Source: a phage. From it: DNA of 64,000 nt. Under the pieces are notes generated by a model that ran no database searches, was not told the origin of the DNA, and worked only from the letters and a program-made list of their open reading frames with translations. Where the stretch lies: the sequence record PX880099.1; one strand, 5' to 3'. Every line of letters begins with the position of its first letter. The first letter of the stretch is position 1. Both the position numbers and the translations under genes were made by a program. Below, in pieces: positions 19,822-63,756 of the stretch.

Positions 19822-20254
19822 AGAAAAAGAAGTAATCACGGTAATCCGTCAGATGGAAGGTGCCGAAAACAACGCTTTTGTTACTAAGATTCTTCTTAAT
19901 ATCTTTGAAGATATTATTTTAAACAATCCTGGTCATAAAGATTATCAGTATGATGTTATGATGGGTGCTTTGCTTGAGATTAACAAAAACACTTTTGCTG
20001 AATATGAGCAACACATGCTTTTACCAGAGGAAGATCAGGATTATTTGTTATCTGGTGCTTTAAGTGCACAAGAAAATTTCTACCACGTTCTTAATATGGC
20101 TTATGCAGATGAACTTGCTGTTTCCCTTGAAGAGCGTATTCAAATGGTTCGTGATGTGATGAATGAACAAATCCAAGAAGTTGAAGACTTGGTAGCAGAA
20201 CCTTTAGCAGAAATTCGTGCAGCTATTGAAAAACAAAAAGGAACTCAATCATGA
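19805..20254 (+). CDS. hypothetical protein (149 aa)
   Basis: SD GAGGAGAAACACTATG. Confidence 0.55.
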   Translation: MSQNAKEKEVITVIRQMEGAENNAFVTKILLNIFEDIILNNPGHKDYQYDVMMGALLEINKNTFAEYEQHMLLPEEDQDYLLSGALSAQENFYHVLNMAYADELAVSLEERIQMVRDVMNEQIQEVEDLVAEPLAEIRAAIEKQKGTQS

Positions 20255-20418
20255 TGCAAGTAGGTGATGTGGTTTGCCTTAAAGGTGCAAACAAACAAAT
20301 GACAGTAATAGAAAGTTATGGTGAATCTTGTAAAGTAACTTGGTTCGATGAAAACGGGGAATTGCAACACGCCATATTCGATCAAAAAGCTTTGAGGAAG
20401 GTTGAAGAAAAAGAATGA
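20251..20418 (+). CDS. hypothetical protein (55 aa)
   Basis: ATGA overlap at both ends; fills coding gap; below ORF-track cutoff. Confidence 0.45.
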   Translation: MMQVGDVVCLKGANKQMTVIESYGESCKVTWFDENGELQHAIFDQKALRKVEEKE

Positions 20419-20678
20419 GCCATCCGTCAATATTTTTCTGTTTTGTAGATCTTGAAAACGAGTCTTTAATCGTTGATAGTGAGGGTTACTTCACTTATTG
20501 GGAATCCGAGCACGAAACTATAAGTGTAGTGAAAGAAATTATGCAAACCAATCCAAGCCTACCAGCGCATAAGTACGGTATTGCAAAAGTGTTTGTTACT
20601 AAAACAGAGTACACAAAAGAGCGAAGCACTTTGTACCATAATATTGAAGTGATTCACTATTTCAAAGATGTTATTTAG
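20415..20678 (+). CDS. hypothetical protein (87 aa)
   Basis: ATGA-coupled. Confidence 0.5.
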   Translation: MSHPSIFFCFVDLENESLIVDSEGYFTYWESEHETISVVKEIMQTNPSLPAHKYGIAKVFVTKTEYTKERSTLYHNIEVIHYFKDVI

Positions 20679-20686
20679 GAGGTTAT

Positions 20687-21295
20687 ATGGAAGAGAAGAT
20701 TTGGGATGGTAAAGATCCTTTAGAAGTTGGACACGTAGCGCGTGTCAAAAAATCTACTACGGGTCCTGGTTTTTCTGGTTTGTATCATATACCAGAAGAA
20801 GGTCAGCACGTTACAATTTTGGCTCGTGACAAACAAAACGGAGCAACGCCTGTGTGGATTGTTCGTTGGTATGACAAAGATCTTAACATTTGCTTGTCAC
20901 CTATTATGGCTCATTTGCTGGAAGCCCCTTGCTCTGAAGAAGCTCTCATTTTTGTTTCTGCTTTTCAGAAAGCCACAGGTTTAACATTAGATGCAAAAGA
21001 TGTGCAAAAAGCACTTGACATTATTGAGGAAGACAACGATACTACATCTAACGACGAACTGGTTGAAGTTACAATATTATCTTCAGCAGATATCCGAGAG
21101 ATTGAGAATTGTGATTTTCCAATCACATTTAAAATGTCGCAGAAAGACGTGCAGTCATCTGGAAGTTGTTTTGGCATACCTCGTTGGTTTTTTGATTCTA
21201 TCAAAAATTCTACTACAGAGGGATCAGACTATGATCAAGATGACATGCTTTGGTTCTTAAAAAACCGAGAGATTGTTCTCTCACCACTTAAGTAA
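20687..21295 (+). CDS. hypothetical protein (202 aa)
   Basis: SD AGGAGGTTATATG. Confidence 0.55.
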   Translation: MEEKIWDGKDPLEVGHVARVKKSTTGPGFSGLYHIPEEGQHVTILARDKQNGATPVWIVRWYDKDLNICLSPIMAHLLEAPCSEEALIFVSAFQKATGLTLDAKDVQKALDIIEEDNDTTSNDELVEVTILSSADIREIENCDFPITFKMSQKDVQSSGSCFGIPRWFFDSIKNSTTEGSDYDQDDMLWFLKNREIVLSPLK

Positions 21296-21304
21296 GGAGA
21301 AATA

Positions 21305-21406
21305 ATGGTTTCATTTATCGTAGGTGTAGTTGTAGGCTATCTTATTAACAAATATCAAGACGTTATCACGGCAAAAGTAAAAGACATTTTAGACTCATCT
21401 AAATAA
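21305..21406 (+). CDS. small membrane peptide (33 aa)
   Basis: SD AAGGAGAAATAATG; MVSFIVGVVVGYLI hydrophobic. Confidence 0.3.
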   Translation: MVSFIVGVVVGYLINKYQDVITAKVKDILDSSK

Positions 21407-21458
21407 TCTATCAAAGCTGCATCTTCAATAGGTGCAGCCTTTTAAAAGGAGATATGGC

Positions 21459-21632
21459 ATGACTAAACGCACTGATTTTAAATGTATGCATTGTGGGAAA
21501 TCTTTTGGGGATCATCAAGCTCGCACATTCAACTGTCCACGTAAAGGTCGCGGAAATTTTAAAGGTTTTAATCCCGCACATGTTTATTCTCCAGATTACG
21601 ATAAGCCAGAAGAAGAAAAATTTGTTATTTAA
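21459..21632 (+). CDS. zinc-binding protein (57 aa)
   Basis: ATG 21459 after SD AAAAGGAGA; CMHCGK...NCPRKG. Confidence 0.5.
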   Translation: MTKRTDFKCMHCGKSFGDHQARTFNCPRKGRGNFKGFNPAHVYSPDYDKPEEEKFVI

Positions 21633-21644
21633 TAAGGAGGTCAT

Positions 21645-21926
21645 ATGGAACTCGTTCAAGAATTGTATAATGCTTTAGGAGCAAAAGGAAAAGATTGGCC
21701 CGAACATGCGCTTATTGCTATAAGAGACTCCGATGGTGAGATTAAGTTTTCAAGCGTAAGTAAAGAGCACATCGTAGAAACAAAACTGGGTATTTACATG
21801 CGTGGAACTTATTGCTTATTCAACACCAGAATGGTAGAAGCCCCTGTTATCGAGGATGGAACAAAAGGTTGCCCCACAATCGTAACAAAATCTGAATATG
21901 AGAAGTTTTTCTACGCTAAGGCTTGA
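21645..21926 (+). CDS. hypothetical protein (93 aa)
   Basis: SD AAGGAGGTCATATG. Confidence 0.55.
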   Translation: MELVQELYNALGAKGKDWPEHALIAIRDSDGEIKFSSVSKEHIVETKLGIYMRGTYCLFNTRMVEAPVIEDGTKGCPTIVTKSEYEKFFYAKA

Positions 21927-21951
21927 CACAGAAACAATACTATAGGATAGT
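21923..21951 (+). promoter_or_regulatory. sigma70-like promoter (TTGACA-17-GATAGT) just upstream of a terminator hairpin
   Basis: TTGACA 21923-21928; GTAGCAATAG repeated at 21961 and 21999. Confidence 0.4.
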
Positions 21952-21970
21952 GATCCTATCGTAGCAATAG

Positions 21971-21992
21971 AACCCGCTTCGGCGGGTTTTTT
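21971..21992 (+). terminator. rho-independent terminator AACCCGCTTCGGCGGGTT + TTTTT
   Basis: UUCG tetraloop hairpin followed by T6. Confidence 0.7.
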
Positions 21993-22017
21993 CATATCTG
22001 TAGCAATAGGAGGTCGT

Positions 22018-22248
22018 GTGTTAAATAAAATCGAAGAAGGTTGTATGGCATTTTTGGTAGATAACCCGTTTCCCTTTATGGTTAAGGTCCATGTAGGAGA
22101 GTATTTAGGTTATGACGAATGGGATTGTAGTATCAATAGTGAAATGCACCACTACCAACCAACAATACTTAAGACGGATCAAATGGCGCGTATTACAGTA
22201 GAGGATGAATTGATCATTGAGTTATACGAGAGAGCACTACACAAGTAA
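22018..22248 (+). CDS. hypothetical protein (76 aa, GTG start)
   Basis: SD AGGAGG then GTG 22018. Confidence 0.45.
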   Translation: MLNKIEEGCMAFLVDNPFPFMVKVHVGEYLGYDEWDCSINSEMHHYQPTILKTDQMARITVEDELIIELYERALHK

Positions 22249-22293
22249 GCTAGAACCCACCTAAATCGAACAGAGACGCTCTAAAATAGAAAA

Positions 22294-22319
22294 GGCACCC
22301 ACTTGGGTGCCTTTGTTTT
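22294..22319 (+). terminator. terminator GGCACCCACTTGGGTGCC + TTTGTTTTA at the rightward/leftward block boundary
   Basis: 7-bp stem, T-rich tail; convergent transcription point. Confidence 0.7.
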
Positions 22320-22590
22320 ATTCTTCGTTAGATTGCGTCTCAGACGCGTTAAATTCGGTTTCAGTACAACTTGCTAGGTAACTTATATTTTGCATCACTA
22401 CGACTACAGGTGTTTGAAGTTTATCTTCTAGCCCCGCAGCCACTTGAGCCAAGGCATTATCAATATTTGATTTCCTAACGCCTGTTCCATGTCCTGTTGC
22501 CAAGTAAAGATTACCTTCCCCTTTTTGTGTAGCATTAGCAAAGTAGTAAACGTAATGTGCAAGGTAGTAATCACGGATTTCTTCAGTCAT
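22318..22590 (-). CDS. hypothetical protein (90 aa)
   Basis: ORF with SD AGGAG (reverse strand). Confidence 0.5.
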   Translation of the reverse strand: MTEEIRDYYLAHYVYYFANATQKGEGNLYLATGHGTGVRKSNIDNALAQVAAGLEDKLQTPVVVVMQNISYLASCTETEFNASETQSNEE

Positions 22591-22609
22591 TTTATTCTCC
22601 TAATAAGAA

Positions 22610-22625
22610 AGGGGCCGAAGCCCCT
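22610..22625 (-). other. conserved hairpin AGGGGCCGAAGCCCCT (copy 1 of 3)
   Basis: Identical 16-mer at 34715 and 40883; gives a UUCG-loop hairpin in leftward RNA. Confidence 0.6.
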
Positions 22626-22633
22626 TGAGTGGT

Positions 22634-23449
22634 TTATTTGTTTAAGTGGTCTTCGACCATTTTAATGAAACCTTCATTGCTGAAGGCTGTTGCAGCTTTT
22701 TCTCGGTAAACAAAAACTCCACGATCTTCATAGAGAAGTGTTTCTTCGTAATTAACTCCAGGGTTAACTACAACCATTTTTGTACCCATACTAAGCGCAG
22801 GGAATAATTCCCAATTAAAATTGATAACTTGGTTTGAACATCCTACTACTACAACCAAATCTTGCATGGTCAAAGTATCGAACAAGTGAGCCATATCTGC
22901 ATACAAAGGTGCAGCCTCACCAAAAAATACAACATTAGGCTTCACCCAGTTATAATCATCTATGTTTATACTATTGTAACCAATATCTACCAGTGTTTTG
23001 TAATCTCCAGGATGCATACGGTAAACTACTTCAGGAAGATATCCGTGCACGTGAATAACAGAATCTCTGTCTACACCTGCTCGCTCTAATAGATCATCAA
23101 CGTTTGTCGTCAAGTTTACTACTTGGTTAGGATATTCCTTAAACCACTTTGCTATTTGAATATGTGCAGCATTAGGTTGTACATCTTTAAGCTCAACACG
23201 TCTTTTGTTATAAAATTCGTGTGTTTTGGCATACAAATCCATACCGTTCTCGTCTACACCACCGACCACTGGAAGATCTGGAGATGTTCTAACACGATAA
23301 CCTGCTTGGAAAGCTCCAATATCGCAGACCTCTTCTAAATCATATTCTTCCCATAAGGCACGACCACTATCGGTGTCTGTTCGGAATGTTCTAATCCCAC
23401 TATCTGCACTTAAACCTGCACCGCTTACAAAAATCACTCGTCTTGGCAT
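22634..23449 (-). CDS. Sir2-family (sirtuin-like) protein
   Basis: VIFVSGAGLSADSGIRTFR (GAG..SGI.TFR), TTNVDDLLERAG (TQN.D.LHERAG-like), VIHVHG; no internal Zn-ribbon cysteines seen. Confidence 0.65.
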   Translation of the reverse strand: MPRRVIFVSGAGLSADSGIRTFRTDTDSGRALWEEYDLEEVCDIGAFQAGYRVRTSPDLPVVGGVDENGMDLYAKTHEFYNKRRVELKDVQPNAAHIQIAKWFKEYPNQVVNLTTNVDDLLERAGVDRDSVIHVHGYLPEVVYRMHPGDYKTLVDIGYNSINIDDYNWVKPNVVFFGEAAPLYADMAHLFDTLTMQDLVVVVGCSNQVINFNWELFPALSMGTKMVVVNPGVNYEETLLYEDRGVFVYREKAATAFSNEGFIKMVEDHLNK

Positions 23450-23925
23450 TCTTCCTCCTCATAATCATCATAATCTTCGTCATCCAAATCGTACACTTCG
23501 TCTTGAGAATAACTCACTTCAAAGTAAATATCAAACTCCGCAAACAAACGTAGAATGTTGGACATGCTATAATAATTATCGTAGGCAGATTCAGCTTCAT
23601 AGTAAACATAAAGCAAATGGTTAGCCTTATCATCTTCCAAATATTTCCCGTCTGCATACGCATAGTCTGCATATGCTTTACCTGCATCTTCCACAAGAGA
23701 ACGATCAAGCAGAGTAGGAAATGGTTTCTCTTTTTCTTTTAGTTTGCTCACCAACCAGTGTGCAATATCATGCCAATCTGCATCCTCTCCGCTGAAGCAG
23801 CTTGCGATTTCGCCAAACTTGGCATCTCCTAAGTCTCCGCTAATAGTGATCATGGTTGAACTATTGTAACCACAAGTTTCGCAATTTGAACAACTGTTGT
23901 GCACATGAATTTCTACTTGAAACAT
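23434..23925 (-). CDS. hypothetical protein with N-terminal Cys cluster and acidic C-terminal tail
   Basis: HNSCSNCETCGY near N-terminus; C-terminus DLDDEDYDDYEEEECQDE; stop overlaps Sir2-like start. Confidence 0.5.
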   Translation of the reverse strand: MFQVEIHVHNSCSNCETCGYNSSTMITISGDLGDAKFGEIASCFSGEDADWHDIAHWLVSKLKEKEKPFPTLLDRSLVEDAGKAYADYAYADGKYLEDDKANHLLYVYYEAESAYDNYYSMSNILRLFAEFDIYFEVSYSQDEVYDLDDEDYDDYEEEECQDE

Positions 23926-23936
23926 ATTCCCTCCTA

Positions 23937-23965
23937 TAAAAGAAAAGCCCCCTGAAACAGGAGGC
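23937..23965 (-). terminator. hairpin + U-tract on leftward strand
   Basis: Stem GCCCCCTG/CAGGAGGC (1 mismatch), followed on reverse strand by TTTTCTTTTA. Confidence 0.45.
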
Positions 23966-23983
23966 TTTGTTCAGATATCGGCA

Positions 23984-24637
23984 CTATACCAGACTTTCAA
24001 GGTATTTGTCAAGGGCTTCTTGATCACCTTGACAAACATAGCAACGGAAGTCTTGAGCCGAAGGTTGTTTATTTTCATCCCAGTCCCAATAAACATTACC
24101 CTTATAACGTGAACCAGGAAACTCAAAAGAGGCTGTATGTGTAATGTATCCTGGGCCACCAGTGAAATCACAGAATGAGAATTGGGGGTATGCCGCCTTT
24201 ACTGCCTCAATAAACCAAGCTTTACGATCTAAAGCTTCATTGATGCTATACGCATGTCTCTCCATTTCTTCCCACGTTTTCCAGACACTTCTTTCATCAG
24301 GAGAAAAGACAAGCCATTCTGGAAGGTAGAGAGTGTCATAGTAATCATCATATTCGATCTCGGAGGCGCACGAGGCTGACTCCTCCAGTCTTGAGTAATC
24401 AAAAGCAGAATATACCCACCAACCATCTTCCAGTAAGGCTTTGATAGGGACGAAGCCTTTATCAGCATATTGATCGAATTGTTTGACACGGTGGCTTGTG
24501 CAGTCTTCAAACTCACATTCTAAACGATATGACCCTTTTCGACGAGCCTCAAGACCGTGTGTACTGAAAATAACAACACTTCCTTCACCATCATTACGAT
24601 CTACTTGATAAGCAACTACTGGTTTTGAATTTGACAT
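23984..24637 (-). CDS. hypothetical protein (217 aa)
   Basis: ORF, last gene of leftward operon 23984-26651. Confidence 0.55.
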   Translation of the reverse strand: MSNSKPVVAYQVDRNDGEGSVVIFSTHGLEARRKGSYRLECEFEDCTSHRVKQFDQYADKGFVPIKALLEDGWWVYSAFDYSRLEESASCASEIEYDDYYDTLYLPEWLVFSPDERSVWKTWEEMERHAYSINEALDRKAWFIEAVKAAYPQFSFCDFTGGPGYITHTASFEFPGSRYKGNVYWDWDENKQPSAQDFRCYVCQGDQEALDKYLESLV

Positions 24638-58920: not shown

Positions 58921-59172
58921 ATGCCGATCACTCCCCATTTGGGGTTCGAAGGATATATGCAAAATAGCTTTTATTTTAGGTGCCGTGCTTGTAATAGGCA
59001 TTTGACAAACCACTCCAGACGTGATAAAAATGGAGTCATCAAGGAATCAGACCTCTGTTCTATTTGCACAGGTTTGGCTTTTGATGATAGTCCCGAAAGG
59101 GTTTATCAGCATCAATGTATAACAGACGTTCTCGTGTCAAACTTGGTAGAGGACGAACAACTAACAGATTAG
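58921..59172 (+). CDS. zinc-finger protein (83 aa)
   Basis: CRACNRH...CSICTG; SD GAGGAGATG. Confidence 0.5.
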   Translation: MPITPHLGFEGYMQNSFYFRCRACNRHLTNHSRRDKNGVIKESDLCSICTGLAFDDSPERVYQHQCITDVLVSNLVEDEQLTD

Positions 59173-59180
59173 GAGGAACA

Positions 59181-59429
59181 ATGTCTCTATTAGAAAAACA
59201 CGTGTTTGAAGATGGTAACGGCAATGCAGTTTTTCTTTTCCATCCAGAAAAATACACATCTGAAAACAATGGTACAACTTCTATTGTAATCACTAAAGAT
59301 GTTAAAGTTATTGATTTCTTGGCTCTGATGCGAGAGATGGATCTTGAAATTAATACTTTTAACGCAGAAGCTTTGGTTGTTGCTCTTCTGGAAAAGAAAG
59401 ATAGTGAAGAAGTAGCAGAATATGCTTAA
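59181..59429 (+). CDS. hypothetical protein (82 aa)
   Basis: ATG 59181 after SD AGGAGG. Confidence 0.5.
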   Translation: MSLLEKHVFEDGNGNAVFLFHPEKYTSENNGTTSIVITKDVKVIDFLALMREMDLEINTFNAEALVVALLEKKDSEEVAEYA

Positions 59430-59436
59430 ATAACTA

Positions 59437-59466
59437 TTGACAAACGTATCCTTCATATGTTAGGAT
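59437..59466 (+). promoter_or_regulatory. promoter, tRNA-cluster type (TTGACA-N11-ATGTTAGGAT)
   Basis: TTGACA 59437-59442; shares ATGTTAG(R) downstream element with promoters at 60025 and 61189. Confidence 0.5.
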
Positions 59467-59479
59467 ACGTTCATCAAGT

Positions 59480-59670
59480 GTGGTAACAGGGTCGTTGACT
59501 TTTGTTAAGAGGGGCTTGCACTGCGGATAGTGTTAGAGACTACTTCTTCAGAGGTTAGCTACCAAAGAGGAAAAGGAATAGTCTCGGCTCAAGAACTTTT
59601 ACGCTGAAAGTTGGGCTTGGTCTTAGAGAATGTAGCGGTTCTCTACAATCGTCAGCGTCTCTGTTACCAC
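59480..59670 (+). ncRNA. candidate structured small RNA / tRNA precursor leader
   Basis: GTGGTAACAG (59480-59489) is the exact reverse complement of CTGTTACCAC (59661-59670); internal stem GAGACTA/TAGTCTC (59536/59579); no ORF; sits between promoter 59437 and tRNA-Met. Confidence 0.35.
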
Positions 59671-59676
59671 ATTTAT

Positions 59677-59751
59677 GGCCCTGTAGCTCAATGGGAGAGC
59701 TGTCGGCTCATAACCGATAGGTAGCTGGATCGAAACCAGCCAGGGCCACCA
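59677..59751 (+). tRNA. tRNA-Met (CAT), elongator type or Ile-lysidine
   Basis: Hand-folded cloverleaf: acceptor GGCCCTG/CAGGGCC, anticodon loop CTCATAA, T-arm GCTGG-ATCGAAA-CCAGC, CCA encoded. Confidence 0.75.
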
Positions 59752-59753
59752 AC

Positions 59754-59828
59754 GTCTTTATGGTGTAATGGATAGCACAGGAGTCTTCTAAACTCTTAGT
59801 CAAGGTTCGATTCCTTGTAAAGACACCA
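59754..59828 (+). tRNA. tRNA-Arg (TCT)
   Basis: Acceptor GTCTTTA/TAAAGAC, anticodon loop CTTCTAA, T-arm CAAGG-TTCGATT-CCTTG, CCA encoded. Confidence 0.75.
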
Positions 59829-60024
59829 GAACATTTTAACATGAATTAGCTCAAGTGATTTGAACCCACTACTGATCATGGTGGCAGAGAATGAGGCAAG
59901 TATGTCAGAAATTATAAACAAAGGCCACGGTTATATTAGAAGACATAAATGCTCGAAGAGCACCGTTCGTGGAGAACGGGGGTTGGTGGAGTCACCATTC
60001 ATGGTAAAATGTTTTAAAAAACTA

Positions 60025-60059
60025 TTGACAACAAACATTATTTTATGTTAGATTATAAG
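60025..60059 (+). promoter_or_regulatory. promoter, tRNA-cluster type (TTGACA-N11-ATGTTAGATT)
   Basis: TTGACA 60025-60030; ATGTTAGAT 60045-60053. Confidence 0.5.
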
Positions 60060-60062
60060 TAT

Positions 60063-60153
60063 GGAAGGGCAAATCGACGTGGCGACGAAAACGGTCTTGA
60101 AAACCGCCGAGCTTGAAAGAGCCTTGGGAGTTCGACTCTCCCTCCTTCCGCCA
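60063..60153 (+). tRNA. tRNA-Ser (TGA), long variable arm, atypical D-arm
   Basis: Acceptor GGAAGGG/TCCTTCC, discriminator G, anticodon arm ACGGT-CTTGAAA-ACCGC like E. coli Ser-UGA, T-arm GGGAG-TTCGACT-CTCCC; D-stem could not be paired by hand. Confidence 0.55.
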
Positions 60154-60158
60154 GATTA

Positions 60159-60244
60159 GGTAGATTGGTGAAATGGTAGCCACAACAGTTTGCTAAACTG
60201 TAGTCGGAAACGGCGTGTAGGTTCGAGTCCTACATCTACCGCCA
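60159..60244 (+). tRNA. tRNA-Ser (GCT), type II
   Basis: Acceptor GGTAGAT/ATCTACC, anticodon loop TTGCTAA, long variable arm, T-arm GTAGG-TTCGAGT-CCTAC. Confidence 0.75.
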
Positions 60245-60415
60245 AGTTATCTTTAATGTAGCTTGTTGCTCTTAGTTGCTTGGTGTAACTTTTTGGAAGG
60301 ATGGCTGCAACCATCTTACTTTAATAGAGTAAACTTTCGGCAGATGGCCCCCACCATCTTACCGATACCTCATAGTCAGTGGTGCGAACACTGGCTATTT
60401 TAAAGATAATTTTAT

Positions 60416-60490
60416 ACATCGTTAGCCAAGCGGTAAGGCACTTGACTTTTAATCAAGGGAGCGAAGGTTCGAATCCTTCACGATGTACCA
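60416..60490 (+). tRNA. tRNA-Lys (TTT)
   Basis: Acceptor ACATCGT/ACGATGT, anticodon arm CTTGA-CTTTTAA-TCAAG, T-arm GAAGG-TTCGAAT-CCTTC. Confidence 0.7.
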
Positions 60491-60495
60491 AACAC

Positions 60496-60582
60496 GTAGG
60501 TATCGCATAGCGGCAATTGCTGGAGACTGTAAATCTCCTGCCCTTCGGGGCTTCGTTGGTTCGAGTCCAACTACCTGCACCA
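60496..60582 (+). tRNA. tRNA-Tyr (GTA), type II
   Basis: Acceptor GTAGGTA/TACCTGC, anticodon arm GGAGA-CTGTAAA-TCTCC, long variable arm, T-arm GTTGG-TTCGAGT-CCAAC. Confidence 0.75.
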
Positions 60583-60589
60583 AATTAAA

Positions 60590-60674
60590 GATGGATTGGC
60601 CTAGTGGTTGGGCGACGGACTGTTAATCCGTGAACGAAAGTTCTAGCAAGGTTCAAATCCTTGATCCATCGCCA
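60590..60674 (+). tRNA. unusual type II tRNA with anticodon GTT (Asn codons) on a Ser/Tyr-like scaffold
   Basis: Perfect acceptor GATGGAT/ATCCATC, discriminator G, 3-bp D-stem GCC/GGC, anticodon arm ACGGA-CTGTTAA-TCCGT, 15-nt extra arm GAACGAAAGTTCTAG, T-arm CAAGG-TTCAAAT-CCTTG. Confidence 0.6.
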
Positions 60675-60753
60675 AATAGTGCTTGTAGAGTTAATAGAAA
60701 CCTCTAGAATTTTCTAGAATTGTAGATATCAAATCCTACCAAGCAAATATTTT

Positions 60754-60828
60754 GCTCCTATCGTATAACGGCTATTACGGTTGCCTTGTAAGCAACTTAT
60801 CAGGGTTCGAGTCCTTGTGGGAGCACCA
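60754..60828 (+). tRNA. tRNA-Thr (TGT)
   Basis: Acceptor GCTCCTA/TGGGAGC, anticodon arm GTTGC-CTTGTAA-GCAAC, T-loop TTCGAGT. Confidence 0.7.
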
Positions 60829-60850
60829 ATTTAACTCTAAAGGAGTGTAT

Positions 60851-61174
60851 GTGACAGAAAAAGAGTTAGAGAAATATTTTAATATCAATGTTTTCGATGG
60901 TTTTGATGATATTGAAGATGTTGAAAGATATTATGAAGTAGAGTTAGATAAGGATAACATTGTAATTCTTTCTGCCACTTATGATTGTGCATATTATGAA
61001 GGTGAATCTCACGTTTATTTCTATGATATGAAAACATCTTTGTTTTATGAAGTACACGCATATCATTGTTCTTGTTATGGCTTAGAAGGTCAGTGGGAAC
61101 CTGAAGAAATAGGTGATTTGAGCTTTACGGTTGCATATCTAAACAGACGTGGTGCATCTACTATTTTAAAATAA
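60851..61174 (+). CDS. hypothetical protein inside tRNA cluster (107 aa, GTG start)
   Basis: SD TAAAGGAG then GTG 60851; track ORF (from TTG 60752) trimmed because it overlaps tRNA-Thr. Confidence 0.5.
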   Translation: MTEKELEKYFNINVFDGFDDIEDVERYYEVELDKDNIVILSATYDCAYYEGESHVYFYDMKTSLFYEVHAYHCSCYGLEGQWEPEEIGDLSFTVAYLNRRGASTILK

Positions 61175-61188
61175 ATATTAAAAGCCTC

Positions 61189-61218
61189 TTGACAAAGGGG
61201 CTAATAATATGTTAGAGT
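61189..61218 (+). promoter_or_regulatory. promoter, tRNA-cluster type (TTGACA-N11-ATGTTAGAGT)
   Basis: TTGACA 61189-61194; ATGTTAGAG 61209-61217. Confidence 0.5.
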
Positions 61219-61229
61219 AATATTGTTAA

Positions 61230-61304
61230 GCGGGTATAGTGTTAATGGTAGCATATGAGGTTTCCACCCTCCAGGTGCAGGTTCAAGTCCTGTTACTCGC
61301 TCCA
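61230..61304 (+). tRNA. tRNA-Gly (TCC)
   Basis: Acceptor GCGGGTA/TACTCGC, discriminator T, anticodon loop TTTCCAC, T-loop TTCAAGT. Confidence 0.7.
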
Positions 61305-61404
61305 AGATTATTTAAATGGAATCGCTAGAGAAAATTTCTCTTTTCGCTCATGGTTTTCTCCTTCAAACTCTAGCGGTTCTTTTTAAGTGATTTTTTAGTT
61401 TTAT

Positions 61405-61479
61405 TGGAGATTAGCCTAGTGGGAAGGCAACGGCCTTTGAAGTCGTGATGACTAGGTTCGATTCCTAGATCTCCAGCCA
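61405..61479 (+). tRNA. tRNA-Gln (TTG)
   Basis: Acceptor TGGAGAT/ATCTCCA (U1-A72 as in E. coli Gln), discriminator G, anticodon loop CTTTGAA, T-arm CTAGG-TTCGATT-CCTAG. Confidence 0.7.
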
Positions 61480-61486
61480 ATATTTA

Positions 61487-61562
61487 CAGTGCGTAGCGCA
61501 GTTGGTAGCGTGGGAGCTTTGGACGCTTCAGGTCGCAGGTTCGAGTCCTGCCGCACTGACCA
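61487..61562 (+). tRNA. tRNA-Pro (TGG)
   Basis: Acceptor CAGTGCG/CGCACTG (C1-G72), anticodon arm GGAGC-TTTGGAC-GCTTC, T-arm GCAGG-TTCGAGT-CCTGC. Confidence 0.75.
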
Positions 61563-61567
61563 AATTT

Positions 61568-61642
61568 GCAGAGATAGCTGAGACGGATTAGTGCTACCCT
61601 GAAAAGGTAGAAAGGATGGATCGTTACCATCTCTCTGCACCA
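61568..61642 (+). tRNA. tRNA-Phe (GAA), non-canonical T-loop
   Basis: Acceptor GCAGAGA/TCTCTGC, anticodon arm CTACC-CTGAAAA-GGTAG, T-arm GATGG-ATCGTTA-CCATC. Confidence 0.6.
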
Positions 61643-61719
61643 AATAACACCATCCAAGGAGTAGACTTGGTTAACTGTCAATAGCACATTGAGGCTTCTT
61701 ACAGTGGTGTACTTATTAT

Positions 61720-61804
61720 GGCTAAGTGGTGGAATGGTATACACGATACGCTTAGAACGTATTGCCCCAAGGGATTGTGAGTTCGAGTCTCACCTTAGCT
61801 ACCA
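61720..61804 (+). tRNA. tRNA-Leu (TAG), type II
   Basis: Acceptor GGCTAAG/CTTAGCT, discriminator A, anticodon arm ATACG-CTTAGAA-CGTAT, long variable arm, T-arm GTGAG-TTCGAGT-CTCAC. Confidence 0.7.
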
Positions 61805-61819
61805 AATTATTAGATGTTT

Positions 61820-61898
61820 CGCGGGATAGAGGAGTCTGGTCGTCCTCGCCAGTTTCATATGCTGGAGATCGTTGGTTCAAATCCAACTCCCGTTACCA
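61820..61898 (+). tRNA. initiator-like tRNA-fMet (CAT)
   Basis: 5' CGCGGGA like E. coli initiator CGCGGGG; 1:72 mismatch (C/U); A11:U24 in D-stem; anticodon loop TTCATAT; T-arm GTTGG-TTCAAAT-CCAAC. Confidence 0.55.
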
Positions 61899-61917
61899 AA
61901 TTTTGCAAGGAGATAAA

Positions 61918-62331
61918 GTGACAGCCAAGAAATCAGCCCAGTTGGGAATGAACGTAAGTACCGCTACGGGCAGGTTAACAAAAGATATAATGTGGCGACT
62001 GATCGTTCAGACAAATCAGAACATGTGCTTTCATTGCGGTAAAGAAATGACGAGAGAAGACTTCTCCATCGAGCACAAAGTTCCTTGGTTGGATAGTGAA
62101 AACCCACAAGACTTATTTTTTGACTTGGACAATATTGCTTTCAGTCACTTATCCTGTAATGTTGCCGCAGCACGTAAGCCGAACAAAGGTATTATTCCTC
62201 ATGGAACATCATCAGGATATGATACTCACAAATGTAGGTGTGATGCATGCAAAGCAGCAAAAGCTGCAAGACGTAAAAAAGAATACACACCAGAAAAGCG
62301 CAGAGCAACTTACGAGCGTACTGGTAAATAG
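61918..62331 (+). CDS. HNH homing-endonuclease-like protein inside tRNA cluster
   Basis: CFHCGKEM...IEHKVPW...NIAFSHLSCN; GTG 61918 after SD AGGAG; track ORF (from 61762) trimmed because it overlaps tRNA genes. Confidence 0.65.
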   Translation: MTAKKSAQLGMNVSTATGRLTKDIMWRLIVQTNQNMCFHCGKEMTREDFSIEHKVPWLDSENPQDLFFDLDNIAFSHLSCNVAAARKPNKGIIPHGTSSGYDTHKCRCDACKAAKAARRKKEYTPEKRRATYERTGK

Positions 62332-62336
62332 ATAAT

Positions 62337-62419
62337 AGCCGGGTAGATTTAAAAGAGTATGGTACTCAATATGGCTCCAAACCATAGATCAGGGGGTTCG
62401 ATTCCTCACCTTGCTGCCA
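62337..62419 (+). tRNA. tRNA-Trp (CCA)-like, irregular (possible pseudo-tRNA)
   Basis: Anticodon arm TATGG-CTCCAAA-CCATA matches E. coli Trp loop; T-arm GGGGG-TTCGATT-CCTCA; acceptor AGCCGGG/CCTTGCT has 1 mismatch; extra nt between acceptor and D-stem. Confidence 0.35.
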
Positions 62420-62424
62420 ATTAT

Positions 62425-62500
62425 TGTGGTATCGTACAGATGGTTAGTACACTCGACCGATAATCGAGAAACAACGGTTCGACTCCGTTTACCACGACCA
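62425..62500 (+). tRNA. tRNA-Ile (GAT), C33 in anticodon loop
   Basis: Acceptor TGTGGTA/TACCACG, D-arm GTAC-AGATGGTTA-GTAC, anticodon arm CTCGA-CCGATAA-TCGAG, T-arm AACGG-TTCGACT-CCGTT. Confidence 0.55.
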
Positions 62501-62614
62501 AACTCCGTGCCAGCGGTGTCTTCGAAGAACAAGCCTAGTTCCTTCTAAGATGGAGGGGTGCGACTCCTTAACGCACAATCATAATAAAGCATTTCAAATT
62601 AACAGTATTTATTG

Positions 62615-62636
62615 GCCTCCTTATTGGAGGCTTTTT
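62615..62636 (+). terminator. rho-independent terminator GCCTCC-TTATTG-GAGGC + TTTTT
   Basis: Hairpin plus T5 immediately after tRNA cluster. Confidence 0.7.
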
Positions 62637-62705
62637 GCTATCTATTGAATAAAACTTGACTTATTATTTTTTATATGTTAAGATAAAGTTTAGGAGGATT
62701 TTATT

Positions 62706-63002
62706 ATGCCTAAACTAAAACGTGGTCGTGGAAGACCAACAGCCGAAATGCAACAGATTTACGCAATGGATGCGGCGCAAGCAAGTGTAAAAGAATTATT
62801 TGCAGAGCATTATTTAGAAGCTATGCGGTATATTGTTGAACTTGTTAATGATAAGGATGCAGCAAAACCTCTCCGCTTCCAAGCAGCTAAAGCTATTAAA
62901 GAGCAAGTAGAAGAATGGTTAGAAGAACATTATGAAGCTATGGAAGAAGAAACCCCTGCCGTGCAGAATACAGATGACGTTCCTAAAAAGATCGTAATCT
63001 AA
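62706..63002 (+). CDS. hypothetical protein with N-terminal AT-hook-like KRGRGRP
   Basis: SD TAGGAGGATTTTATTATG. Confidence 0.55.
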   Translation: MPKLKRGRGRPTAEMQQIYAMDAAQASVKELFAEHYLEAMRYIVELVNDKDAAKPLRFQAAKAIKEQVEEWLEEHYEAMEEETPAVQNTDDVPKKIVI

Positions 63003-63017
63003 TCCCTCTCCTCTCTT

Positions 63018-63086
63018 GGGGCTTTGCCCCCTCCTCCTTGTTATTTTTAACACCCCTCTCCGAAAGGTTAGGGGCTTTTTATTTTT
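63018..63086 (+). terminator. tandem terminators (GGGGCTTTGCCCC...; CCCCT...AGGGGC + TTTTTATTTTT)
   Basis: Two GC hairpins each followed by T-rich tract. Confidence 0.65.
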
Positions 63087-63091
63087 AATGC

Positions 63092-63121
63092 TTGCAATTG
63101 TATATCCTTTTGTGATAAGAT
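63092..63121 (+). promoter_or_regulatory. sigma70-like promoter (TTGCAA-17/18-TAAGAT)
   Basis: TTGCAA 63092-63097; GATAAGAT 63114-63121. Confidence 0.4.
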
Positions 63122-63142
63122 CAGATATGAGGAGGATAAAAT

Positions 63143-63313
63143 ATGCGCAATTTTGTAGTTAAAAATGATTTTAACCGTTCTTCTTATCATAAAGATAAAA
63201 AGAATGATTACACACGGGCTTGGAACTTGGAGGAAGAACTTTATGATGACAGAGAAGACGTGGGAAGAGATCCTAGCGGAGGCTCAACCAATGGAAGTGA
63301 AGAAGATAGTTAA
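63143..63313 (+). CDS. hypothetical acidic protein (56 aa)
   Basis: Strong SD GAGGAGG 6-7 nt before ATG 63143; below ORF-track cutoff. Confidence 0.4.
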   Translation: MRNFVVKNDFNRSSYHKDKKNDYTRAWNLEEELYDDREDVGRDPSGGSTNGSEEDS

Positions 63314-63380
63314 TAATGCCCCTTCTCTTCCTAAAATAAAATTTTATGAGGAAGCAGAAGATAATGAATCTAAAGACTAA
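63243..63380 (+). CDS. hypothetical protein (45 aa), alternative/overlapping frame
   Basis: SD GGAGGAAG 9 nt before ATGATG 63243; part of track ORF 63165..63380; overlaps 63143-63313. Confidence 0.3.
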   Translation: MMTEKTWEEILAEAQPMEVKKIVNNAPSLPKIKFYEEAEDNESKD

Positions 63381-63756
63381 AACTGTATTAGGTTTTGTTT
63401 TAATTGTTGTTCTTATTCTTACCGGAATGTTTGCTTATAACAAGATACGTGAGTCTGGCTACAAAGATGGTGTTGCCTATCAAACGCAATTATATCAAGC
63501 AGCCCAAGCAAAAGCAAAACAGGATTTTGATGTTCTTCAAAAAAGAGCCGATGAAGAAAGAGCATTATTAAATACTCAAATAAACAACTTGTCTAAAAAC
63601 AATGCACAATTAAAAGCAGATTTAGAGAAGAAGAAACAAACGATCAATGAGGATACAACGAATTATGCAAAAACTAATTCTGGCAGTATGTCTTGCTTTG
63701 CCCCTAATGATGACGGGTTGTTCATCATCAACAAAAGTTTCCCCAGTTCTTATTGA
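63346..63756 (+). CDS. i-spanin (Rz-like: N-terminal TM anchor + coiled coil)
   Basis: TM segment TVLGFVLIVVLILTGMFAY then charged coiled-coil region; the o-spanin gene is embedded in its 3' part; alternative start ATG 63364. Confidence 0.6.
   Translation: MRKQKIMNLKTKTVLGFVLIVVLILTGMFAYNKIRESGYKDGVAYQTQLYQAAQAKAKQDFDVLQKRADEERALLNTQINNLSKNNAQLKADLEKKKQTINEDTTNYAKTNSGSMSCFAPNDDGLFIINKSFPSSY

Follow-up and report, generated by a model that had tools for sequence, protein, structure and literature searches.

Transfer RNAs that depart from the canonical cloverleaf have been described in bacteria and in their phages. The (8/4) tRNAs reported by Mukai et al. (2017; PMC5389517) keep a 12-base-pair (bp) arm formed by the acceptor and T stems, split as 8 + 4; they occur in bacteria and phages, including within phage tRNA clusters, and are overlooked by standard gene finders. 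The 8/4 species reported there are Ser and His, together with Cys/Sec variants, and Trp is not mentioned in the main text of that paper. Allo-tRNAs have a long variable arm and a D arm like that of tRNA-Sec, with a long stem and a tetraloop. We have examined a tRNA cluster on the plus strand at positions 59677-62500 of a 64,000-nucleotide (nt) stretch of phage DNA (sequence record PX880099.1), the whole of which is referred to here as the window. The cluster is of a kind already known from phi92/phAPEC8-type phages (Stephanstirmvirinae). That of phi92 (NC_023693) has the same gene order from Tyr to Ile, with 98-100% identity, but differs in its left part, where the window has Met/Ile2, Arg, a Phapecoctavirus-type Ser-TGA and another Lys, and in having no HNH endonuclease gene. 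Our main subject is a non-canonical, 83-nt tRNA-Trp-like gene (62337-62419) that appears, from comparative alignment and covariation, to be a new variant among the known 8/4 kind, a Trp-type tRNA with a helix between its linker and its variable loop.

The acceptor stem of the Trp-like gene has 8 bp (62337-62344 with 62408-62415) and its T arm (62393-62407) has a 4-bp stem, and together these make up the usual 12-bp coaxial arm. The discriminator G73 is nucleotide 62416 and is followed by an encoded CCA end (62417-62419). A D hairpin (62355-62367) carries an invariant GG, and the anticodon arm (62370-62386) presents CCA (62377-62379) in the loop CUCCAAA. In place of the canonical two nucleotides at positions 8 and 9, a linker of 9-10 nt joins the acceptor to the D hairpin in all 16 sequences that we aligned, and bases of this linker form a helix of 2-3 bp with the 6-nt variable loop, in which 62346-62348 face 62388-62390. 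The D arm has 5 bp and a 3-nt loop in the clade of the window and 3 bp and an 8-nt loop in Ounavirinae. The mismatched acceptor described in the initial annotation turned out to be an artefact of a start placed 5 nt too late, since from 62337 the stem has 8 bp with one mismatch. The register drawn by ARAGORN, which starts at 62342 and has three G.U pairs and two mismatches, was rejected in favour of 62337 on comparative evidence.

The set of 16 sequences spans Stephanstirmvirinae, Vequintavirinae and Ounavirinae. Across these, 91.5% of the cells at proposed pairs are paired, against 63% in shuffles and 41-52% when partners are slid, and 18 of the 25 pairs show changes on both sides. Five pair types occur at the eighth acceptor pair, which is formed in every sequence; 14 of the 16 lack the canonical fifth pair of the T stem, and the gene thus falls outside the 7/5 cloverleaf. 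In the helix between linker and variable loop, pair 10:57 is GC in seven sequences, UA in seven and AU in one, and pair 11:56 is GC in nine, AU in four, CG in one and UA in one. RNAalifold, given nine sequences, predicted the 8/4 architecture independently. The gene scores below both the gathering score of the Rfam tRNA model RF00005 and the ARAGORN default, and does not qualify as a canonical bacterial tRNA. With a covariance model of the class, members score 42-106 bits and ordinary phage tRNA-Trp genes 35-42 bits.

The gene also keeps the major identity elements of a bacterial tRNA-Trp. According to the bacterial tRNA-Trp identity set of Giege and Eriani, the major determinants are the CCA anticodon, G73 and A1-U72 (PMC9976931). 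The anticodon C34 C35 A36 and G73 are each present in 16 of 16 sequences, and A1-U72 in 15 of 16 (the Arno18 copy has G-C). Of the minor determinants for tryptophanyl-tRNA synthetase (TrpRS), G2-C71, G3-C70, G4-C69 and G5-C68, the corresponding positions of the window are G2-C71, C3-G70, C4xU69 and G5.U68, and those of the Ounavirinae copies are U2-A71, G3-C70, G4-C69 and G5-C68.

Copies of the Trp-like gene occur in 63 + 236 phage records, the 236 being Ounavirinae (among them FelixO1, Sf14, Mijalis, mistaenkt and Hafnia phages), where the gene lies between tRNA-Arg and tRNA-Ser. Other diverged copies are found in unclassified Stephanstirmvirinae (KP13-26, Tr1 and an IMG/VR contig) and in the Certrevirus Pectobacterium phage DU_PP_IV. 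This diversity was recovered by BLAST of the phage collection and by the covariance model; pattern scans of IMG/VR and metagenome sequences added few new members (L009 and L011) and returned several canonical tRNA-Trp genes, and one pattern match (L016), lying within a coding region, was discarded as chance. None of the 100 matches listed has a tRNA annotated at the site, which is labelled 'none' or 'hypothetical protein'. The gene is likewise missing from the annotation of phi92 and from the list of 16 Justusliebigvirus tRNAs in the BME3 paper, which does not include Trp (PMC12210895). For Shigella phage Sf14, 26 tRNAs for 19 amino acids are annotated and the amino acid that is missing is Trp (Table 8 of PMC12482277); Sf14 carries the Trp-like element in the Arg-Ser interval.

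Both features of allo-tRNAs named above are lacking in the Trp-like gene, which differs from them in its 6-nt variable loop, its 9-10-nt linker and its linker/variable-loop helix. We found no earlier report of a phage tRNA-Trp that is 8/4 or non-canonical in any other way, in a survey whose literature coverage is incomplete, so that this is an absence of evidence only, and we found none in the literature for a helix of this kind between linker and variable loop.

A second irregular gene, the type II tRNA-Ser(TGA) at 60063-60153, can also be understood by comparison. It is reported by ARAGORN only at a 90% threshold (-ps90), and its start was set from the Rfam match and the acceptor pairing. 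The initial annotation described its D arm as unpaired, which is incorrect: a CAAA linker is followed by a 3-bp D stem (TCG/CGA), a 9-nt loop containing TGG and then AAA. This stem is displaced inward by two positions and has A.A flanks, so that the canonical 10-12:23-25 register is not used. The gene has the long variable arm, G73, G1-C72, G2-C71 and serine anticodon of a type II tRNA-Ser, and it encodes CCA. BLAST found homologues in 380 phage records, often without annotation. In an alignment of seven lineages (Phapecoctavirus, Kolesnikvirus, Certrevirus, Mydovirus, Tequintavirus BF23, phiWec179 and Vibrio phage Ceto), all share a 7-bp acceptor, the CAAA linker and the 3-bp D stem, whose loop of 8-11 nt contains UGG; the anticodon stem measures 4-5 bp, the variable stem 4 bp and the T stem 5 bp. 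The D stem is TCG/CGA throughout except in Ceto, where a change from U-A to C-G gives CCG/CGG. Overall 95.8% of cells are paired, and both-side changes are seen in 10 of 24 pairs, against 0-4 in slid controls; acceptor pairs 1-3 are invariant (GC, GC, AU) and the variable stem covaries. On this alignment Ser-TGA is a conserved type II tRNA and not a wreck. An alternative 6-bp D hairpin with a UGG triloop was rejected, as the variable base or bases of the homologues break its pairs. T5-like phages also carry a full-length homologue of this atypical Ser tRNA; the BF23 copy (L035:61-151) has a GGA anticodon and adjoins an annotated tRNA-Ser(tga), while being itself without annotation.

With these two genes the cluster reaches the 16 tRNA genes counted in the initial annotation. 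Fourteen, all on the plus strand like every other feature given here for the window, were found as the same set by default ARAGORN and at the RF00005 gathering score, with Rfam scores of 47.8-73.6 bits (E 3e-14 to 4e-7). Relaxing ARAGORN to -ps90 added exactly two candidates, Ser-TGA (60064-60153) and Trp-CCA (62342-62419). In a permissive Rfam scan both touched only one model, that of tRNA-Sec (RF01852), at 37.4 bits for Ser-TGA and 22.4 bits for the Trp-like gene against a cut-off of 47; the remainder of that scan was noise, such as Plastid-ycf2 and RyhB. The acceptor of bacterial tRNA-Sec has 8 bp, and its extended D stem bears a small loop; tRNA-Sec differs in its 8/5 split, long variable arm and UCA anticodon, the two odd genes having UGA (Ser) and CCA (Trp). 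A CCA end is encoded in 16 of 16 genes. The automated tools therefore did not reject most of the irregular candidates: 14 of the 16 genes were accepted, including Phe, Ile, the initiator-like gene and the GUU gene, and both of those rejected at default settings show covariation. The general picture of standard and non-canonical tRNA genes mixed with a homing-type HNH gene was borne out.

The cluster opens with a tRNA-CAT, probably tRNA-Ile2 of the lysidine type (59677-59751; Rfam 64.5 bits), followed by tRNA-Arg(TCT) (59754-59828; 66.3 bits), Ser(TGA), which directly precedes Ser(GCT) (60159-60244), and Lys(TTT) (60416-60490; 73.6 bits). Then come Tyr(GTA) (60496-60582), the type II tRNA with a GTT (Asn) anticodon (60590-60674; 56.5 bits), Thr(TGT) (60754-60828), Gly(TCC) (61230-61304), Gln(TTG) (61405-61479), Pro(TGG) (61487-61562), Phe(GAA) (61568-61642; 49.2 bits), Leu(TAG) (61720-61804), the initiator-like tRNA(CAT) (61820-61898; 47.8 bits), and finally the Trp-like gene, set between the HNH gene (61918-62331) and Ile(GAT) (62425-62500; 57.3 bits). 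A 107-amino-acid (aa) open reading frame (ORF), ORF107, lies between Thr and Gly (60851-61174) and is a homologue of phi92 gp112 (phrog_8792, E 1e-43); it and the HNH gene are both present where the initial annotation had placed them. Neither ORF107 nor a 63-aa ORF (59860-60051) nor a 98-aa ORF has any Pfam match, and the 63-aa ORF, which has a TTG start, is unlikely to be a real gene.

Three promoter-like sites of the TG-extended form TTGACA-N18-TAGNNT precede the first tRNA, Ser(TGA) and Gly. The one upstream of the first tRNA (59437-59466) is a sigma-70-like sequence match, TTGACA-18-TAGGAT, with 10 of 12 consensus positions; the second (60025-60054, TTGACA-18-TAGATT) ends 8 nt before Ser-TGA, and the third (61189-61218) reads TTGACA-18-TAGAGT. 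A hairpin followed by a T run that resembles an intrinsic terminator (62614-62632) closes the cluster. The 16 tRNA genes are probably transcribed from three sigma-70-like promoters towards one terminator.

Several of the genes that score well are irregular in ways that the initial annotation had recognized. In tRNA-Phe the T loop is ATCGTTA, with A54/T58 in place of T54/A58, as seen both in the ARAGORN drawing and in the sequence. The Phe gene of Citrobacter phage Tr1 has the identical loop on acceptor and anticodon stems that differ with compensation, and that of KP13-26 has CTCGATA; the absence of T54 from the T loop has therefore been conserved in this phage tRNA-Phe. The T loop of the first CAT tRNA, ATCGAAA, also has A54, which brings the tRNAs lacking T54 in the related clusters to three (the first CAT gene, the Phe of the window and the Phe of KP13-26). 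A gene 99% identical to this first CAT tRNA is labelled tRNA-Ile-CAT by tRNAscan-SE in phage ASO2A. The anticodon loop of tRNA-Ile(GAT) is CCGATAA and indeed has C33, and this gene also has a U1.G72 pair. Because relatives outside the Justusliebigvirus type (the Ile genes of KP13-26, Tr1, the IMG/VR contig L009 and ESCO5) have T33, C33 is a derived, clade-wide change.

A bacterial initiator tRNA is marked, among other features, by a run of three G:C pairs in its anticodon stem (29-31:39-41). The second CAT tRNA (61820-61898) has the C1xT72 mismatch and the A11:T24 pair noted in the initial annotation, which are both initiator features, together with an initiator-type T loop (TTCAAAT), an 11-nt D loop and the anticodon loop TTCATAT. 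Its anticodon stem, CCAGU/GCUGG, forms A29-U41, G30-C40 and U31.G39 and so lacks the three G:C pairs. On these features it resembles an initiator in its acceptor, D arm and T arm and not in its anticodon stem, a design kept in both genera. In the homologue from Salmonella phage UAB_1 (L001:3119-3197), which adjoins the HNH gene, the 5' strand of the T stem, ATCGG, is mismatched to the 3' strand CCAAC; the same stem is paired through compensating changes in the window (GTTGG/CCAAC), phi92 (GTAGG/CCTAC) and ESCO5 (ATTGG/CCAAT). The variation in UAB_1 lies right next to the HNH insertion site.

The GTT gene is, as first described, a type II tRNA. It is 85 nt long and has a long variable arm with a 4-bp stem and a GAAA loop, G73 and A2-T71, and in relatives the variable stem covaries (GAAC/GTTC, GAGA/TCTC, GAGG/CCTC, GTTC/GAAC). 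GUU and G73 make up the full set for asparaginyl-tRNA synthetase (AsnRS). G73 and the long arm are traits of seryl-tRNA synthetase (SerRS) substrates, but the second pair is A2-U71 and not the G2-C71 conserved in tRNA-Ser. On these sequence elements, either AsnRS or SerRS may charge this tRNA. The subfamily holds a second type II tRNA whose anticodon is not that of Ser, Leu or Tyr, an 89-nt gene with a TTC (Glu) anticodon and a long variable arm, found in KP13-26, Citrobacter phage Tr1 and an IMG/VR contig (respectively L005:1154-1242, L006:2153-2241 and L009:4743-4831, complement). The tRNA-Lys genes of UAB_1 (L001:1715-1789) and phi92 (L002:1721-1796) have an aberrant anticodon arm, which ARAGORN reads as Pro(agg) in one and as an undetermined 'tt' anticodon in the other; the Lys of the window is canonical.

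The HNH gene encodes 137 aa and has a GTG start with the ribosome binding site AAGGAG. Its catalytic motif matches PF01844 (E 2.9e-5, 24.5 bits against a cut-off of 21.4), and the protein belongs to phrog_23251 (E 4e-51). Residues 90-130, in the C-terminal third, match PHROG integrase and helix-turn-helix (HTH) DNA-binding families (E 3e-7 to 3e-5), which points to a distinct DNA-binding module C-terminal to the HNH motif. A protein of at least 95% identity is found in only two phage records, against 63 for the flanking Trp-like gene; the best match is UAB_1 at 99.3% and the next best is at 65%. The block 61899-62336 is identical to that of UAB_1 at 438 of 438 positions and is missing from phi92 and from Shigella phage SF1-1, and at the corresponding site phi92 has a spacer of about 60 nt, an intact empty allele. 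Homologues of 42-65% identity lie inside other tRNA clusters, in the order Asn/HNH/Asp in mistaenkt and Met/HNH/Tyr in Arno18, and in DU_PP_IV the order is Trp-like/HNH/Ile. On this distribution, the HNH gene is a sporadic, tRNA-cluster-associated and apparently mobile gene, which would have taken the place of the spacer, some 60 nt long, that separated the initiator-like tRNA from the Trp-like gene. The pattern fits that of a free-standing homing endonuclease with tRNA clusters as its habitat, an activity that we infer.

A precedent is SegB of phage T4, whose gene is also a free-standing homing endonuclease gene between tRNA genes, within the T4 tRNA cluster; in mixed infections SegB causes the tRNA region to be inherited preferentially and co-converted (PMC2330249). 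Amplification by SegB of a tRNA gene directed against a tRNA-cleaving defence has also been reported (PMC13096335), and exchanged tracts bordered by homing endonuclease genes have been described (PMC10448857). SegB is a GIY-YIG enzyme, and the putative homing enzyme of the window belongs to another nuclease family, HNH. The suggestion in the initial annotation that homing endonuclease activity shaped the cluster thus stands in part: the HNH gene looks mobile and the cassette in which it lies is recombinant. The implied link to the oddities of the Trp-like gene does not hold. In phi92, which has no HNH gene at this site, the Trp-like sequence is the same down to its odd 5' side, and the HNH gene is therefore not the cause of these oddities.

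Segment-wise comparison reveals where the cassette comes from. At positions 20000-24000 the window is 99.5% identical to SF1-1 and 99.3% to Escherichia phage EF1-1 (Phapecoctavirus group), and Phapecoctavirus records match the left part of the cluster (59440-60160) at 99.7% identity, with the last segment of this type, at Ser(GCT), being 100% Phapecoctavirus-like. From tRNA-Tyr, itself 100% identical to that of UAB_1, to tRNA-Ile, identity is 98-100% to Justusliebigvirus (phi92 and UAB_1), and SF1-1 is unalignable or about 70-76% identical. The intervening tRNA-Lys is a third-lineage allele, 90.7% identical to the unclassified Stephanstirmvirinae contig L009 and 78-80% to Justusliebigvirus, and is missing from SF1-1. 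The left junction falls between Ser(GCT) and Tyr. The right junction, at about 62535-62548, falls inside a conserved non-coding element of about 100 nt after the last tRNA (62501-62600), with the HNH gene about 200 bp away; this element shows 92-99% identity between the two genera, which exceeds that of most of the tRNAs, has no Rfam match and has a fold that is not distinctive (z = -1.1). These identities imply that an eight-tRNA tract of the backbone (Tyr, Asn, Thr, Gly, Gln, Pro, Ile, Met) was replaced, the new tract being Lys, Tyr, Asn, Thr, ORF107, Gly, Gln, Pro, Phe, Leu, Met, HNH, Trp-like and Ile. By segment-wise identity the window is a Stephanstirmvirinae coliphage with a Phapecoctavirus backbone and a Justusliebigvirus-type tRNA cassette, a three-way mosaic. 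About 60.42-62.54 kb would have been imported by recombination in conserved sequence, with the third-lineage Lys followed by the Justusliebigvirus segment from Tyr to Ile, and gene conversion initiated by the HNH enzyme may have driven the exchange. No record of the 50,697-genome phage collection covers at least 80% of 59000-63500.

Two further observations concern the interval between Ser(GCT) and Lys. The spacer at 60318-60412 is conserved and structured (fold z = -3.99), with two hairpins, of which the first shows compensatory changes between genera and the second has a 10-bp stem followed by TTTT, possibly an internal terminator or processing signal. An insertion of about 50 nt (60262-60313) is missing at the same place in ESCO5, UAB_1 and phi92.

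If the Trp-like RNA works as its architecture suggests, it would be processed like its neighbours, charged by host TrpRS and read UGG, giving the phage its own Trp decoder. That it is a charged, decoding tRNA-Trp is the reading that we favour, with some reserve. It could instead be an RNA that is made but serves as no adaptor, such as a tRNA mimic, a decoy for a nuclease or modification enzyme, or a TrpRS-binding regulator: its core, with the 9-10-nt linker and extra helix, is unlike that of every tRNA known to work on the E. coli ribosome, host systems that cut tRNAs exist, including ones that cut tRNA-Trp acceptor stems (PMC12916289), and phage tRNAs are documented as counter-defence factors (PMC10264068; PMC11555353). 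Against this, the RNA keeps what a translating tRNA-Trp needs, including the 7-nt loop YUCCAAA, the 12-bp acceptor/T arm, the GG and TTCGA loops, G73, A1-U72 and CCA; in Sf14 it is the sole candidate for the one amino acid without a phage tRNA; and 8/4 tRNAs are reported to translate in E. coli (PMC5389517). We regard a role other than decoding as unlikely. Still less probable is that Ser-TGA, the Trp-like gene, Phe and Ile with C33 are decaying pseudogenes carried along in the cluster. The rejection of the first two by default ARAGORN and Rfam, the flagging of Ser-TGA and Phe as pseudo in the phi92 RefSeq record, the conserved acceptor mismatch of the Trp-like gene and C33 where U33 is near-universal would all fit decay, but compensatory changes hold every helix across subfamilies (in the 18 of 25 Trp-like and 10 of 24 Ser-TGA pairs), no variation is seen in the anticodon loop, the T loop, G73 or the CCA end, Phe retains its odd T loop while its stems change with compensation, and Ser-TGA is preceded by its own promoter-like site. 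That insertion of the HNH gene damaged or reshaped an adjacent Trp gene, producing a mismatched acceptor and an expanded D region, we consider extremely improbable. The HNH stop codon does lie 5 nt upstream of the Trp-like gene, and in DU_PP_IV an HNH homologue lies 20 nt downstream of the same gene; yet phi92, without HNH, has the identical 83-nt gene, the Ounavirinae copies, whose 300-bp flanks on both sides hold no annotated HNH gene, share the architecture, and in Ounavirinae and Vequintavirinae compensatory changes preserve that architecture.

The case for conserved function must also be set against a number of points that weigh on the other side. The 16 Trp-like sequences derive from no more than about 6-8 independent lineages, and their alignment was fitted to the model, which favours the proposed structure. 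The linker/variable-loop helix is only 2-3 bp and is absent from the nine-sequence RNAalifold prediction, and in the Ounavirinae clade U.U stands at the third pair of this helix. The Pectobacterium copy requires a shifted register and has two acceptor mismatches, the clade of the window retains C4xU69, and the folding energy of the single Trp-like sequence is no better than that of shuffles (z = 0.24). Phe is annotated as pseudo in UAB_1 as well as in phi92, by two annotation pipelines, and C33 in Ile is confined to one clade and could be mildly deleterious. As to the cassette, the exchange could be plain homologous recombination. Both junctions, moreover, lie in sequence conserved between genera (the Ser-GCT/spacer region and the 3' element), where the assembly of a mixed sample could switch templates, and this, with the lack of any phage-collection record spanning the region, is what an assembly chimera of two co-occurring phages would predict. 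The tRNA-Lys allele of the tract belongs to neither parent type, however, the insertion at 60262-60313 is unique, and the shared stretches are short and non-identical, and we think it improbable that the mosaic is anything other than a real recombinant. Taking these points together, we consider it likely from the comparative record that the cluster is a functional operon whose irregular members are conserved variants and not products of decay.

These tRNAs would give the phage a set structurally unlike the host tRNAs that are targeted by tRNA-cleaving defences, and by analogy it is possible that their structural departures help them to escape such defences. The counter-defence tRNAs described from virulent phages differ from those of the host at the sites of host nucleases (van den Berg 2023, PMC10264068; Azam 2024, PMC11555353; Burman 2024, PMC11464382). 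Those are anticodon-loop substitutions in otherwise canonical molecules, whereas the differences seen here are architectural and involve the core, the D arm, the T loop and the acceptor/T split. We put forward only tentatively, and with less confidence than the decoding role itself, the broader proposal that the new architecture is the overlooked tryptophan tRNA of about 300 virulent enterobacterial myoviruses, FelixO1 and phi92 among them, and that, owing to its changed core and acceptor, it works when a defence disables host tRNA-Trp.

If the Trp-like gene works, the published tRNA inventories of FelixO1-like, Moogle-like, phi92-like and Certrevirus phages are one gene short, and analyses of codon adaptation or tRNA avoidance built on those inventories would carry the same gap. 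Tryptophan would then join the short list of 8/4 tRNAs, and the gene would provide a natural example of a rebuilt tRNA core, in which a helix between linker and variable loop replaces the usual tertiary contacts. Such a core would be relevant to tRNA structure, to recognition by RNase P and TrpRS, and to the design of orthogonal tRNAs. The HNH gene and the mosaic are an ordinary but clean case of a tRNA cassette that moves between phage genera beside a putative homing endonuclease. The presence of several tRNAs that are architecturally unlike those of the host fits the current idea that phage tRNAs serve in surviving tRNA-targeting immunity, for which this cluster may offer concrete RNAs.

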